Positions 49,101-55,100 of a stretch of DNA of 55,188 nucleotides are shown piece by piece (within the stretch, counting starts at the first letter, position 1; every line of letters starts with the position of its first letter). The position numbers were made by a program. Origin of the DNA: a virus (Duplodnaviria > Heunggongvirae > Uroviricota > Caudoviricetes); IMG/VR virus record IMGVR_UViG_2850802633_000006; one strand, 5' to 3'.

Positions 49101-52100
49101 CATGAACACCAATTATGAAGCCACTGTTGCAACTACTGATAACATTGTTCACGAGGTTTACCTGGAAGGAAAGCATATTGAGGTAGCCTGAGTTTAACGG
49201 ACACTCCTTCCTGAAATAGAATGGCATCAGAAGGAGCTAATAATGAGCAGAAAAACCCAACGTTACTCTAAAGAGTTCAAAGCCGAAGCTGTCAGAACGG
49301 TTCTTGAAAATCAACTTTCGATCAGTGAAGGCGCTTCCCGATTATCCCTTCCTGAAGGCACTTTAGGACAATGGGTTACCGCCGCCAGAAAAGGGCTCGG
49401 TACTCCTGGTTCCCGCACGGTGGCTGAACTGGAATCTGAAATTCTGCAACTGCGTAAGGCGTTAAATGAAGCTCGCCTTGAGCGAGATATATTAAAAAAA
49501 GCAACAGCGTATTTTGCACAGGAGTCGCTGAAAAATACGCGTTAATCGAACAATGGCGACAACAATTTCCCATTGAAGCGATGTGTCAGGTATTTGGTGT
49601 ATCCAGGAGCGGTTATTACAACTGGGTACAGCATGAACCCTCAGACAGAAAACAAAGTGATGAGCGGCTAAAACTGGAGATTAAGGTGGCACATATCCGC
49701 ACTCGCGAAACATATGGAACCCGGCGGCTCCAGACGGAGCTGGCAGAGAATGGCATCATCGTTGGTCGTGACCGACTGGCACGTCTTCGTAAGGAGCTGA
49801 GGCTACGCTGTAAGCAGAAACGCAAGTTCAGAGCGACTACGAACCCGAACCACAATCTGCCAGTTGCGCCAAATCTGCTGAACCAGACGTTCGCTCCTAC
49901 AGCACCAAATCAGGTCTGGGTGGCGGACCTGACGTATGTTGCTGGCATCAAAGATGTTTATACGTGCGAAATTGTCGGCTACGCCATGGGAGAGCGCATG
50001 ACAAAAGAGCTGACAGGTAAAGCCCTGTTTATGGCGCTCAGGAGCCAGCGCCCACCTGCCGGGCTAATCCACCACTCTGATCGAGGTTCACAGTACTGCG
50101 CATACGATTACCGGGTCATACAGGAGCAGTCTGGTCTGAAAACATCAATGTCGCGTAAAGGTAACTGTTACGACAACGCTCCGATGGAAAGCTTCTGGGG
50201 AACGCTGAAAAATGAGAGCCTGAGCCACTATCGTTTTAATAACCGGGATGAAGCCATCTCAGTAATACGGGAATACATTGAGATTTTCTACAATCGTCAG
50301 CGTCGTCACTCTCGTCTGGGGAATATCTCCCCGGCAGCCTTCAGGGAAAAATATCATCAGATAGCTGCTTAAAAAAAGAACAAATGGTAGTGTCCGCTAT
50401 TGCCAGTACACCTCAGCCTTAATTGCATCAGTCAGGCGGAGCAGGGCGGCATTATCCAGAGTTGTCGGTTCTGCCATGCCGCGTATGGCCAACAGCAGAT
50501 TCTGGACATAGCTGTTTTCCTGATCCATCTCAAGAGCAGTAATGTGTTTGCGTTGTTCACGGGTGGCATGATGCAGGTATTTCCGATCCCCGGCAGCATA
50601 CGTAAAAATGTGCAGAAGACGCTGTGTGAACCGCAAAGTGGCTACAGAGACTTCGCAATCCTGGCAATCCTCGTGGGCGTCTGCCTGCGCGTTTTCTTCC
50701 TGGCCTCCCGCCAGTTCTTTGGTTTCTTGAGCATTATCCTGGTGGTGAACGTCGTCTGGCGCTGCTCCCGGTTTTAGTTCCCATGTCATGGAGTCTTTGC
50801 TGAGTTGATAGCGTTCACTCCAGGTAAAATCGATCTCACCTTCAGGGGGAAGGTCATTAACGACAGGAAAATTTGTGGCAACAGCTTTAAAATAGTTGCT
50901 CAGTTTTTTACCTGACTTAACGAGCAGATAGTCCAGAGTGGTGCTGGTCGATTCAAAATCGTCGCTTGCCCACAGGACGACGTCAGGTTCACCGGATGAT
51001 TTTTTCGCTTTCCGTAACAGGAAGAGTGGTTTTGTGCTCATTGTTTTTTAACCTCAACTCAGATTAAAATTACTGCGAGTGATGAATAAATGTCCCAGGT
51101 TCTTCACTCAGGCCTGCACACTGTGCAGGCTTTCTTTTTTTCAGATTTCACCTTTTAATTTCATTGCAATCAGATTTGCCAGAAATTCGGCTTTTTTTCT
51201 GCGGGCAGATTATTTCCGATGTAAACTAGGCACATTTTTGTGGCACCTTCAACAAGAGTTTTAAAGTTTCCTGATAGACCGTCGATATCAACTACAGTGA
51301 ATGGGGTTTCTTTATTTTCTGTTTTAATTACGTAGCCAATATGAGGTGTACTGGCAATAGCGGACACTACCATTTGTTCTTTTTTTAAGCAGCCATCTGA
51401 TGATATTTTTCCCTGAAGGCTGCCGGGGAGATATTCCCCAGACGAGAGTGACGACGCTGACGATTGTAGAAAATCTCAATGTATTCCCGTATTACTGAGA
51501 TGGCTTCATCCCGGTTATTAAAACGATAGTGGCTCAGGCTCTCATTTTTCAGCGTTCCCCAGAAGCTTTCCATCGGAGCGTTGTCGTAACAGTTACCTTT
51601 ACGCGACATTGATGTTTTCAGACCAGACTGCTCCTGTATGACCCGGTAATCGTATGCGCAGTACTGTGAACCTCGATCAGAGTGGTGGATTAGCCCGGCA
51701 GGTGGGCGCTGGCTCCTGAGCGCCATAAACAGGGCTTTACCTGTCAGCTCTTTTGTCATGCGCTCTCCCATGGCGTAGCCGACAATTTCGCACGTATAAA
51801 CATCTTTGATGCCAGCAACATACGTCAGGTCCGCCACCCAGACCTGATTTGGTGCTGTAGGAGCGAACGTCTGGTTCAGCAGATTTGGCGCAACTGGCAG
51901 ATTGTGGTTCGGGTTCGTAGTCGCTCTGAACTTGCGTTTCTGCTTACAGCGTAGCCTCAGCTCCTTACGAAGACGTGCCAGTCGGTCACGACCAACGATG
52001 ATGCCATTCTCTGCCAGCTCCGTCTGGAGCCGCCGGGTTCCATATGTTTCGCGAGTGCGGATATGTGCCACCTTAATCTCCAGTTTTAGCCGCTCATCAC

Positions 52101-55100
52101 TTTGTTTTCTGTCTGAGGGTTCATGCTGTACCCAGTTGTAATAACCGCTCCTGGATACACCAAATACCTGACACATCGCTTCAATGGGAAATTGTTGTCG
52201 CCATTGTTCGATTAACGCGTATTTTTCAGCGACTCCTGTGTAAAATACGCTGTTGCTTTTTTTAATATATCGCGCTCAAGGCGAGCTTCATTTAACGCCT
52301 TACGCAGTTGCAGAATTTCAGATTCCAGTTCAGCCACCGTGCGGAAACCAGGAGTACCGAGCCCTTTTCTGGCGGCGGTAACCCATTGTCCTAAAGTGCC
52401 TTCAGGAAGAGATAATCGGGAAGCGCCTTCACTGATCGAAAGTTGATTTTCAAGAACCGTTCTGACAGCTTCGGCTTTGAACTATTTAGAGTAACGTTGG
52501 GTTTTTCTGCTCATTATTAGCTCCTTCTGATGCCATTCTATTTCAGGAAGGAGTGTCCGTTAAACTCAGGCTACCTCACATGTCTCTGGCGCAATGCCCG
52601 GGCTTTTTATTCGCACATCGTGAGGAATGCACCGTGGAAATTAAAAAAATCATTAATCCCCGTTATACCGAAAGTGGCGCAGTAGACTGTGACGTTTTTT
52701 TTGACGACAGGGACCAGGCAGTCCCCTACACAGCCACCGCTGATGATGTCGCACCGACGGGTCAGCGAATCTGGCAGGAACTGCAAAGTGGCAAATGGGG
52801 TGAGATAGCCCCATTCACTGTGACACCAGAAATGCTGGAAGCGGCCAGAGAGGCCAGACGTCAGGAAATTGAAGCATGGCGCACAGAACAGGAGGCGAAG
52901 CCGTTCACGTTTGAATGGAACGGTCGTATCTGGAATGCTGGCCCCAACTCACTGGGCCGCCTTTATCCGGTGGTAATGGCTGCGAAATCCGACATTGTAC
53001 GGGACGTGATGACGTGGGGTGATGCCGATAATCAGCAGGTGAAACTGTCGATGCCGGAACTGGAAGAACTGGCGGCAGCAATGGTGCAGGCGCAGGTCGA
53101 TCGCAACGATGAGATTTATCGCCGTCAGCGTGAAATGAAAGAGGAGCTGAGCGGTCTGGATGATTTGGCTTCAATTCGGGCGTTTGACGTTGAGTAATGA
53201 ATAAGCCGCAACTGGCGGAATCACAGAAGACCGCTTTGCTTACCGAAGCGGAGTCTGTCATCCGGCCGCCGGGGCGTGCTGTCAGGCTGAACAGGGAAAC
53301 GGATGAATCCGGGGAGGCCCGGGGGCGGGCCTCTGTTTTTCCGGAGTCAGTCCGGTCTGTGGTTTATGCGATGTGATTATGAATGGTGCAGTTGTGAGCC
53401 GTTTTCAGACAATCGCAGGGCCAGTACCTCGTCAGTCAGCTGACGGTAAATCTGCTGTTCAGTCTCACGCATCACCTGTGCTCCTGCTTCCCTCTCCGCA
53501 TCCGCATCATCGCTCAGACCGGATGCTTTCAGCCGGTCAGCCACCCTCTGAGGGTACTCATTCTCCAGCATCTCATACTTCTGCTCTTCTGCCTGCGCCC
53601 AGCGGTCAGCTTCCGTACGCTTCAGTACAGCATGCCATGGTCCCCAGAGGGAGAACCAGTCCGTAAATTCATTCTCTTCACGGCTTCTGACCATGGCTTC
53701 GGCAGTGCGGAGGTCATTTGCTGTCACTCCCGACACGCCATAGAAACGCATTTCCTTCACGGCAGTGGAGAGCTGAAGTTTCTCTGCGAGCATGGTCTGG
53801 AAGGCCAGGTAGACTTCTATCTCATCCACAAAATGGAGAGTTCTGACTTTATCCCGGGCAATGTCCTCCAGAATTTCGAGGCGGAACATTTCCCTGCCCA
53901 GGGAGAGCAGAGCGCCGGTATCATTATCGAAAAGGCCTTCAGATGCCTGATGGACCAGGAGGGTTTTCCGGAGATTGTTCCATGTGAGCGCGACACGGTC
54001 CTCACAGCTCTCAGTGGCATCAGCAGCAACAGCGAAAGACTGCTGTCGAAGCTCCGCAGAGGCACTGAGTTTTTCCAGCCATGCAGCGACCTGTTCACGG
54101 AATCCGGAGGTATTGCGTGCAGAGACGGTATCGGAAAGGCGGTCAAGGAACGCGGAGAATGCCCGGGAATTCTCCTCGGTGGAAAAAGAAGTCCATTGTG
54201 TAGAAACCTCCCGACGATCTGCTTCAGGAAACCAGGCTGCCACAGTTTCGGGAAGAGGGGGGATCTGAAAGTTCTGCCCCCCTTCAGTGATGACTCTGAT
54301 ATGGCGCGAATGTAAATTTTGCGGCAACATCTGGCGTAAAAACAGTCTGTTTTGGTCTGACAGGGAAATACGAAACTGAGGCCCGTTAAAATTTGGAACC
54401 GAAGTTTGCTGTATTAAGAATAGCAGAGTTTGATCTGATAAGGGGTTATTTGCAATCTCAATAGTTATATGAGGATCTAAACGAAAAAGATTTGTCGGGA
54501 TTGTAGTTATTTGGTTGTTTTCAAAATAAAAAAATCTTCTCATGATAATATTTTCTTGGATGTTTGGTAAGTTGCTTAATCTATTGCTATATGCAAAAAG
54601 AAGTTGCAGTCTCCTAGGTAAAGGGGGCAGTTCAGTAAGATGGTTGTGCGCAACCTTAAGTATCTTAAGATTAGAAGGCAGAGATGGAAGAGTTTGCAGT
54701 TCGTTGTTCCTAACCTCAAGTTTTTTTAAATTCAAGGGTAATGAAGGCAGTGTGGATAACCTATTATACTCTGCGCTTAGTGATTTGATGGTGTCTGGTA
54801 ATAACGGCAGATTCTCTAATTGATTTTCGGACACATCCAAAGTTATTAGATAATGTGGTAATGCAGATATATGTGTTAAGAAATTATCTCTTGCAATAAG
54901 TTCTTTAATATTTTCAGGTAAATCAGTAAGGATGGTTAATTTATTACAGCTCACATCAAGCTTTTTAATGCAAGCAGGGAGTACAGGTAGCGAGGAAAGC
55001 TCCAAGGCTCGCAGGTCCAGTTTATGCCCCTTAGAGGTAAGACATGCACGAAGTCTTCTTACCGCCTCAGTACGCTGTTCTTCCGGTAACCCCTGTTTCT

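Follow-up and report, generated by a model that had tools for sequence, protein, structure and literature searches.

IS600 is an insertion sequence of the IS3 family, 1264 bp in length, that generates a 3-bp target duplication. IS3-family elements transpose by a copy-out/paste-in mechanism via a circular intermediate. Inversions mediated by insertion sequences are known from Shigella flexneri, for example between strains Sf8401 and Sf301, where one is attributed to IS600 (PMC1550401). The locus described here lies in a window of 55,188 nucleotides, the whole stretch of DNA that was analysed. It resembles these inversions in organism, in type of element and in a flip by recombination between inverted copies that leaves target duplications unmatched. 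It differs in being tiny (926 bp), in being nested beside a larger rearrangement and in being common to all genomes examined. No description of this particular locus was found in the literature examined.

The window is S. flexneri chromosome (100% identity with strain 93-3063 over 4.9 kb), this region of it being a lambdoid prophage in decay, located between ybhB and pgl. Three insertions of IS600, two recombinations between copies and a gene conversion very probably explain the locus, which can be looked at as a worked example of how such events scramble a prophage beside two ipaH effector genes. The outcome is genome decay of the ordinary IS-driven sort, present in many S. flexneri genomes; it is neither novel nor a composite transposon. 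The main value of the analysis is in annotation, as a 214-amino-acid open reading frame is shown to be a recE pseudogene fragment.

The IS600 pair and the gene fragments between its copies

Two of the window's IS600 copies, copy 3 (49179–50415, plus strand) and copy 4 (51342–52578, minus strand), are each 1237 bp long and lie in opposite orientation with 926 bp between them, as a sequence-only reading of this DNA had proposed. Like IS600 generally, they have TGAGG...CCTCA ends, an orfA/orfB pair, an A7 run and an OrfB with an rve domain. The termini, TGAGGTAGCC... and ...GTACACCTCA, are imperfect inverted repeats in which 20 of the first 27 positions match, with TG...CA at the ends. Copy 3 shows the IS3-family layout, with an intact orfA and an orfB in the −1 frame (49243–49545 and 49581–50372) and a slippery A7 site at IS position 316. 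OrfB matches the Pfam families HTH_21, rve, rve_3 and rve_2 and thus has a DDE core; the full-length OrfB of copy 2 (30600–31418) matches NCBIfam transpos_IS3 at 1e-99 (334 bits).

Unlike standard IS600, both copies are a deletion allele. Compared with the complete copy of 1264 bp at 30198–31461, they lack the 27 nucleotides GCCACACAGGAGGGATGGTTGTACCTC, which encode ATQEGWLYL, with the junction at about 49940–49943 in copy 3 and 51815–51816 in copy 4; the common in-frame deletion noted earlier is borne out. The nine missing residues sit immediately past the first catalytic Asp motif (VWVADLTYV), within the rve core, and the Pfam rve score drops from 90.6 bits for the full-length OrfB to 68.2 bits for the OrfB of copy 3. 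The deletion hits the transposase catalytic core and the enzyme is probably inactivated. The two copies had been called identical, and this they are not: they differ at IS positions 95, 169, 234, 307, 338 and 1185. The first of the six differences (G>T at window position 52484) turns codon 11 of the copy 4 orfA into the nonsense codon TAG.

The plus-strand flanks are TAT and GCC for copy 3, and ATA and CAT for copy 4 (ATG and TAT when read in the orientation of the IS). Neither copy has a 3-bp duplication of its own, in agreement with the earlier reading. That reading had also proposed comparing the flanks of all copies. Copies 1 and 2 of the window do carry duplications, GTT/GTT and GAC/GAC, respectively, and the TAT to the left of copy 3 (49176–49178) pairs with its reverse complement, the ATA on the inner side of copy 4 (51339–51341), so that a duplication is found across the pair. 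The unmatched flanks of copies 3 and 4 would stem from recombination after insertion, and they do not speak against their identity as IS600.

The TAT/ATA halves terminate the two parts of a single gene. The 5′ fragment of a racC homologue (49102–49178, plus strand) comprises codons 1–25 plus 2 nt and ends in the TAT copy; the 3′ fragment (51170–51341, minus strand) ends with the ATA. When 49102–49178 is fused to the reverse complement of 51170–51338, a complete 80-amino-acid open reading frame of the RacC family results (NCBIfam PRK09790, 2e-41), a protein named racC or rac prophage protein in some sources. Next to the 3′ fragment is the racC–recE spacer (51042–51169, minus strand), which is part of the block collinear with E. 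coli and has a GC-rich hairpin at 51110–51132, followed by a T-run on the plus strand only. The terminator-like hairpin and gene fragment reported for the segment are therefore both present, the fragment being the 3′ part of racC.

The remainder of the segment (50416–51041, minus strand) had been described as an unrecognised acidic 208-amino-acid reading frame that runs into IS600. It is acidic (33 D+E vs 23 K+R), and its frame stays open to 50397, 19 nt into the IS, which yields the 214-amino-acid fusion. It is not unrecognised, as it matches the Exonuc_VIII N-terminal domain of Pfam (PF06630, 1.2e-67) over profile positions 1–203 of 203, is 99.7% identical to recE of E. coli FDAARGOS_944, and is entered in public records as 'exodeoxyribonuclease VIII [Shigella flexneri]'. 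It represents codons 1–208 plus 2 nt of recE. Against NCBIfam PRK09709 it aligns with positions 1–188 of 877 only, at 196 bits where the cut-off is 1269, and the C-terminal nuclease part of a full-length RecE is missing, IS600 having cut the frame after codon 208. The profile search thus reveals a piece of a well-known gene, an outcome that the earlier reading had named as contradicting it. The enclosed segment holds no working gene: racC is split, and recE, deprived of its nuclease domain, is down to roughly a quarter of its length.

The segment is closest to the early-left module ydaE-racC-recE of the E. coli Rac prophage, which it resembles in gene order, in sequence (99.6%, FDAARGOS_944) and in the presence of PF06630. 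It differs from that module in the IS600 insertion that splits racC, in the loss of recE beyond codon 208 together with the nuclease domain and recT, and in ydaE, which is interrupted by IS1 at codon 5.

Inversion of the segment and the right-hand breakpoint

Joining 48760–49178 to the reverse complement of 50416–51338, with one TAT removed, restores ydaE-racC-recE. The restored sequence aligns with E. coli FDAARGOS_944 (NZ_CP065613.1) as one ungapped piece, 1342 of 1342 nt at 99.6% identity, over genes annotated as YdaE, hypothetical and RecE, and at least 80% of it is covered in 275 further E. coli genomes. A relative of the segment free of IS600, which the earlier reading had suggested looking for, is thus at hand in FDAARGOS_944, where the un-inverted sequence is uninterrupted. 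The TAT/ATA pairing and this one-piece match show an inversion of the segment, very probably by recombination between two IS600 copies, one of the possibilities the sequence-only reading had raised.

Three separate insertions would lie behind the four IS ends. The one into racC made a TAT duplication; the second, whose flank is GGC, hit recE behind codon 208; and the third, with CAT as its flank, entered a tail-fibre gene 45 nt short of its end. Inverted IS600 copies would then have undergone homologous recombination at least twice. In event A, the racC copy recombined with the copy next to recE, and the 926 bp that hold the 3′ part of racC, the spacer and the 5′ part of recE were turned round. 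This separated the TAT duplication, one TAT now lying to the left of copy 3 and the other on the inner side of copy 4, and would account for the missing duplications at copies 3 and 4. In event B, the recE copy would have recombined with the tail-fibre copy. Either order of the two events fits.

Event B concerns the right flank. Here a prophage tail-fibre gene of the ybhA/pgl-site type has left its final 45 nt (52579–52623, plus strand) next to copy 4, with the flank CAT; the remnant is assigned by alignment to the window's intact left-hand copy and to FDAARGOS_944 positions 4325960–4326006. A DUF4376 tail-fibre-assembly-like gene (52580–53197, plus strand) is recognised by PF14301, by gene calls in one retrieved locus (L009) and by the annotation of the intact gene. 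The right-hand IS600 copy had been said to cut off the 5′ side of this tfa-like gene, which is barely the case: the gene loses just ATGCA of the annotated start, keeps an in-frame ATG at 52580 and is essentially whole (205 amino acids vs 207 when intact). The truncated gene is the tail-fibre gene upstream of it. An ipaH gene for an ipaHb-type E3 ligase effector follows (53377–55188, minus strand) and then, beyond the window, pgl-ybhD-ybhH-ybhI-ybhJ in inverted order.

Gene order in FDAARGOS_944 is ybhB-[prophage]-ybhC-ybhJ-ybhI-ybhH-ybhD-pgl-ipaHb-DUF4376-tail fibre, and that of the window and L009 is ybhB-[prophage]-recE′-IS600-DUF4376-ipaHb-pgl-ybhD-ybhH-ybhI-ybhJ. The two orders part exactly where copy 4 ends on its outer side (window 52577 = record 4325960). 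This synteny suggests a second rearrangement, event B, which would have joined the recE 5′ end to the tail-fibre 3′ end, DUF4376 and ipaHb and would also have inverted the block with pgl-ybhJ relative to E. coli.

A reciprocal junction is predicted from event B, of the form tail fibre...GCACAT-IS600-GGC plus the recE 3′ part. The partner copy would have ...GGATGCACAT at its IRR side and GGCAGTTTTCTC... (recE codon 209 onward) at its IRL side. A query consisting of the IS600 IRL end, 0–8 nt and AGTTTTCTCTATCACGAA has no exact match in species-representative genomes, although two of these hold the window's own junction, and none in metagenome contigs or in the retrieved loci. In complete E. coli genomes the sole match (H34) is an unrelated nearby IS600 in recE. 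A protein search in Shigella shows no recE 3′ partner fragment, though one could hide within a 90% cluster. Among the candidates considered, P0062, P0055 and P0006 (Shigella) belong to a different recE allele, and P0008, P0009 and P0023 continue across the junction without a break. As the reciprocal junction was not found, a later deletion of the recE 3′ part is possible, as is a more complex event B. The present layout could equally have been reached by one additional inversion between two prophages. In FDAARGOS_944, the ybhB/ybhC prophage has exo/bet instead of recE, and the recE module is in another prophage.

Look-up of the tail-fibre protein led to two places only, the ybhB locus and a third locus with ipaH, near dinI/aspS. 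For the ybhD pseudogene fragment of S. flexneri, the matches did not include that exact protein. A candidate for the locus beyond ybhJ (P0125) proved an ordinary locus of E. coli, and L011, an apparent variant with ybhC adjoining copy 4, has a 100-N scaffold gap exactly there and was set aside as a variant.

Alternative explanations and occurrence in other genomes

The 12-nt flanks of all four IS ends are identical in ten retrieved loci (L002–L010 and L034), and L035, of 8 kb, has the recE′-IS600 junction and both copy 4 flanks as in the window. At least 10 further public genomes thus share these copies and their flanks, among them serotypes 1c, 5a and Y; the sequence-only reading had given such relatives as grounds for dropping its interpretation. 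The rearrangement is old and common to every S. flexneri genome examined, and is neither recent nor special. Complete E. coli genomes in RefSeq have the IS pair in this context in 0 places (coverage of at least 80%). Orientation of the segment is uniform in 12 of 12 readable genomes, being read against ydaE or cI in L002–L011 and L034; in L035 it can be read against copy 4 only, and agrees. The protein used for the look-up would be identical in either orientation. Stable and lineage-wide, the junctions could serve as markers in S. flexneri typing.

It should be pointed out that homologous recombination and transposition-coupled inversion leave indistinguishable sequence at event A. A one-step process, in which the racC IS600 attacks recE by a replicative or dimer-mediated route and the second copy and the inversion arise together, would give the TAT/ATA split that is seen, and the full-length pairs of other strains differ at only 2–4 positions, which also fits. 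However, copy-out/paste-in transposition via a circle does not yield inversion-duplications, and a one-step process predicts GGC and the recE 3′ part outside copy 4, where CAT and a tail-fibre 3′ end are found; it therefore still needs further recombination, and is unlikely. The inverted arrangement around a short segment also recalls a composite transposon, the alternative the earlier reading had offered, whereby both copies and the 0.9-kb passenger moved in as a unit. The outer flanks TAT and CAT are no direct repeat, the passenger is what natively follows the left flank (racC being divided between the two, and the segment collinear with E. coli once flipped), the right flank is from a different part of the chromosome, and both OrfBs lack nine residues of the catalytic core, copy 4 having an orfA stop in addition. 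Such an origin has virtually no probability.

Mis-resolved orientation of a 0.9-kb segment between 1.2-kb repeats deserves attention as an assembly artefact, since short-read assemblies leave the segment on its own contig of <2 kb with orientation undetermined (38 of 48 index blocks). Yet 11 independent assemblies with contigs of 0.39 to 4.6 Mb agree in orientation and in junction sequences (L002–L010 and L034, plus L035, which counts for only the two junctions covered by its 8 kb), and the differing SNPs of copies 3 and 4 would be lost in a collapsed repeat, which makes an artefact exceedingly improbable. Inverted repeats of 1.2 kb at 99.5% identity are good RecA substrates and re-inversion is physically possible, which raises the question of whether the segment is a reversible switch that alters read-through into DUF4376/ipaH. 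The single orientation in all 12 readable genomes, the two dead gene fragments enclosed, and the lack of an invertase or other recombinase gene in or beside the segment render a switch very improbable.

The 27-bp deletion allele

With insertion followed by recombination as the preferred reading, the state of the deletion calls for a later step. Both copies are full length in L004–L006 and L034, the deletion is in copy 3 only in L002, L003, L007 and L008, and it is in both copies in the window, L009 and L010, the last being a draft assembly, where collapse of a repeat could have produced the doubly deleted state. The shared deletion might be taken as a mark of sister copies, which it is not, in that sister strains hold full-length copies or one deleted copy at the same sites. 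This strain-dependent pattern of none, one or both points to gene conversion, by which the deletion allele would have been copied from one resident IS600 copy to the other. Copy 4 of the window retains SNPs of the copy 4 lineage on either side of the deletion, at IS positions 95, 169 and 1185 (the last being alignment position 1212), and the limits of the conversion tract are loosely bounded, at under about 0.87 kb. Recurrent independent deletions were considered and set aside: the junction has only 2 nt of microhomology (GC), and the identical allele is found at many loci.

Strain-variable alleles at orthologous sites with flanking SNPs kept are like those of concerted evolution, or ectopic conversion, of IS copies, and there is nothing unusual in them. 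A more adventurous suggestion is that the allele, as a trans-dominant inhibitor, dampens transposition of IS600 in IS-laden Shigella genomes and for that reason spreads among resident copies by gene conversion. The OrfAB and OrfB with a damaged core would then be more than the products of a dead copy; the suggestion is a very doubtful one. The deletion allele is polymorphic at no fewer than three fixed sites, including that of copy 2, where the deletion is present in L024 and L032 and absent in the window, and it is present at several other S. flexneri loci. It provides a small natural marker of ectopic conversion between IS copies.

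The IS600 pair and the segment it encloses

A repeat search of the window shows an inverted repeat whose 1237-nt arms lie at 49179–50415 (copy 3, + strand) and 51342–52578 (copy 4, − strand), which are 926 nt apart. Alignment with the full-length 1264-bp IS600 at 30198–31461 (copy 2) bears out the shared in-frame deletion described in the sequence-only reading: 27 nt, GCCACACAGGAGGGATGGTTGTACCTC, are missing from both arms, and OrfB therefore lacks ATQEGWLYL. The arms were also thought to be identical, but base-by-base comparison reveals six differences, at IS positions 95, 169, 234, 307, 338 and 1185. 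The change at position 95 (window 52484) turns orfA codon 11 into TAG, and copy 4 is thus without the 100-aa OrfA. The nine residues lost from OrfB are within the Pfam rve core, immediately after a VWVADLTYV motif, and in a Pfam search the deletion lowers the rve score from 90.6 to 68.2 bits. W..D.T is the conserved first-Asp motif of IS3 and retroviral integrases; judged from this motif, the deletion probably inactivates the transposase.

Flanks on the + strand are TAT/GCC for copy 3 and ATA/CAT for copy 4, so neither copy has a 3-bp duplication of its own, as had been stated. Duplications are present at copy 2 (GAC/GAC) and at copy 1 (24868–27442; GTT/GTT). A 1.3-kb IS3-family element (OrfA 26006–26332, OrfB 26547–27215) interrupts the latter at 25951/27257, and a further IS3-family element is found at about 28.6–29.9 kb.

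The acidic ORF of the enclosed segment (50416–51041, − strand) was regarded as unrecognised. It matches Pfam Exonuc_VIII (PF06630, 1.2e-67) over the entire profile and positions 1–188 of the 877-position NCBIfam exodeoxyribonuclease VIII model, and these matches identify it as recE codons 1–208. The ORF does run into IS600, which supplies its final six codons and stop. The exact 214-aa product is already named "exodeoxyribonuclease VIII [Shigella flexneri]" in public records, in a cluster of 440 members. The fragment terminates ...AATTAAGGC at copy 3; the E. coli gene goes on AGTTTTCTCTATC... In an unrelated strain, E. coli NZ_CP074904.1 (3413143–3413724), recE also has an IS600, no more than about 80 bp from where the Shigella copy inserted, which suggests that the region is a repeated IS600 target.

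Inversion between the two copies

The ancestral order was rebuilt by reverse-complementing 50416–51338, joining it to 49178 and dropping one TAT, which yields 1342 nt. The join closes an 80-aa ORF (MNTNYEATVATTDNIVHEVYLEGKHIGYVIKTENKE...NFWQI) that matches NCBIfam PRK09790 (2e-41) and is named racC or rac prophage protein by some submitters. The segment has only recE and racC pieces and thus consists of two gene fragments, with no intact gene; the terminator-like hairpin reported in it (51110–51132) is real and lies in the racC-recE spacer.

In a search of complete E. coli genomes, the reconstruction matches NZ_CP065613.1 (strain FDAARGOS_944) in one alignment with 100% coverage and 99.6% identity, through genes for a YdaE family protein, a hypothetical protein and a RecE family exodeoxyribonuclease. 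In 275 more of these genomes at least 80% is covered, and collinear. As the rebuilt sequence is collinear with E. coli, the ancestral order had the segment between the IS copies in the opposite orientation.

Recombination between the copies and a composite element had both been proposed. TAT outside copy 3 and its reverse complement, ATA, inside copy 4 are, on sequence grounds, the expected remnant of an exchange between two inverted copies. This pairing and the single-piece match of the flipped-back sequence argue for inversion by recombination; the composite-element idea is wrong. Read from their flanks, the four IS ends come from three insertions, in racC (TAT), recE (GGC) and the tail-fibre gene (CAT). 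IS-mediated inversions, IS600-mediated ones among them, are documented in S. flexneri genomes (PMC1550401), and the finding is one of ordinary IS-driven prophage decay.

Over the 4.9 kb that surround the pair, the window has 100% identity to CP026768.1, the accession of S. flexneri 93-3063 (serotype Y; PMC9455713). Nine further genomes (L002–L008, L010 and L034, the last being S. flexneri SFBU1023), with serotypes 1c and 5a represented, match the window in the 12 nt flanking each of the four IS ends and in segment orientation; in L035 the recE'-IS600 junction and both copy 4 flanks are present. This sharing within S. flexneri makes the rearrangement an old one. It is absent from the complete E. 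coli genomes in RefSeq.

The 27-bp deletion allele

L004, L005, L006 and L034 have two full-length copies; in L002, L003, L007 and L008 the deletion is confined to copy 3; and in the window, L009 and L010 both copies carry it. To either side of the deletion, copy 4 of the window retains copy-4-specific bases that its closest relatives also have: T at IS positions 95 and 169, and G rather than the A of copy 3 at IS position 1185 (alignment position 1212). Gene conversion from copy 3, over a tract of less than about 0.87 kb, would produce this pattern. The allele occurs at other loci too, once with a normal ATG duplication, and at the site orthologous to copy 2 it is present in L024 and L032, in contrast to the full-length copy of the window. 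The shared deletion is thus no proof that copies 3 and 4 are sisters.

Next to a YCII-domain gene (possibly yciI), a deletion-allele IS600 has a common right flank, CTACTCAGAACA, in four S. flexneri assemblies (L026, L030, L031 and L033), and the left neighbours all differ (Q/RusA phage genes; gltD; a Wzy/IS1 region; phage baseplate genes). The pattern suggests that IS600-mediated rearrangement between strains has a hot spot here.

Prophage ends and chromosome layout

The sequence outside copy 4, CATGTCTCTGG..., is identical to 3500–3625 at the opposite window end, where it follows ...GGCCGGATGCA and a tail-fibre ORF. In FDAARGOS_944 the equivalent point (4325960) lies in a gene annotated "prophage tail fiber N-terminal domain-containing protein", 47 nt upstream of its stop; the DUF4376 gene overlaps it, and its annotated start is 3 nt before this point. 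The right copy was said to cut off the 5' side of the tfa-like gene; instead, DUF4376 keeps an in-frame ATG (205 vs 207 aa) and nearly all of the tail-fibre gene is removed.

DUF4376 (tfa-like) and the C-terminal half of ipaH form a 1.6-kb inverted repeat at the window ends (2004–3625 and 52577–54196), which could itself invert the whole 49-kb prophage. Identity between its arms is uneven (100% for the 126 nt adjoining copy 4, then 93%, 98% and 96%), which hints at conversion between two ipaH islands. The left DUF4376 gene (3004–3513, − strand) has a T9 run vs T8 in the right gene (52580–53197); the frameshift leaves a 169-aa ORF vs 207 aa, intact in other strains. Either the gene has become a pseudogene in this strain alone, or the extra T is a homopolymer sequencing error.

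In the ipaH-carrying E. coli FDAARGOS_944 the layout is un-rearranged: ybhA-[prophage with int...recE-racC-ydaE-Rha-cI-cro...tail fibre-DUF4376-ipaHb]-pgl-ybhD-ybhH-ybhI-ybhJ-ybhC-[lambda-like prophage...J-Lom-tail fibre-DUF4376-ipaHa]-ybhB. The window begins within ybhB, and loci fetched via the 214-aa protein continue to its right with ipaH-pgl-ybhD-ybhH-ybhI-ybhJ. Mapped onto this reference, the lambda-like tail region adjoining ybhB (1–17105) is 98.3% identical, the recE-type early region (39358–49180) 99.3% and the DUF4376-ipaHb end adjoining pgl (52577–55188) 98.6%. In S. flexneri the DUF4376-ipaHb-pgl...ybhJ block is inverted relative to ybhB, with one breakpoint falling exactly at the outer end of copy 4. 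Most simply, this would reflect a second recombination, with the recE IS600 and an inverted IS600 of the tail-fibre gene as partners. It is uncertain exactly what the ancestral layout was and whether one or two large inversions took place, since the reference recE module is in the other prophage. The reciprocal junction, an IS600 joining the tail-fibre gene to the 3' part of recE, was not found in species-representative genomes, metagenome contigs, complete E. coli genomes or the fetched loci. The window's own recE'-IS600 junction is present in two genomes of the species-representative collection, and the partner is therefore probably no longer intact.

The prophage (1–49180) is a mosaic relative to FDAARGOS_944. 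Its lambda-type tail is like the prophage at ybhB, its lysis/tRNA patches and early region (31.8–49.2 kb) are like that at ybhA/pgl, and its head region (17–31 kb) is like neither. Beyond the right end of the window, ybhD (LysR-family regulator; L009 2968–3921) is split by a stop codon into 180-aa and 125-aa ORFs in most S. flexneri genomes examined (L002–L007, L009, L011); the E. coli gene is intact.

An inverted IS1 pair (38590–39358 and 47984–48752), 8.6 kb apart, surrounds the immunity region. The right IS1 is in ydaE codon 5 and has an 8–9-bp duplication, CTATGCTT. The left one has none (GCGTGCGGAC vs CTTTGTTGAG), and its left side is thus another recombinant or deletion joint. An IS2 with a 5-bp duplication (45317–46647) is found in the recE-type early region between the DUF1391 and Rha genes, with flanks otherwise collinear with FDAARGOS_944.
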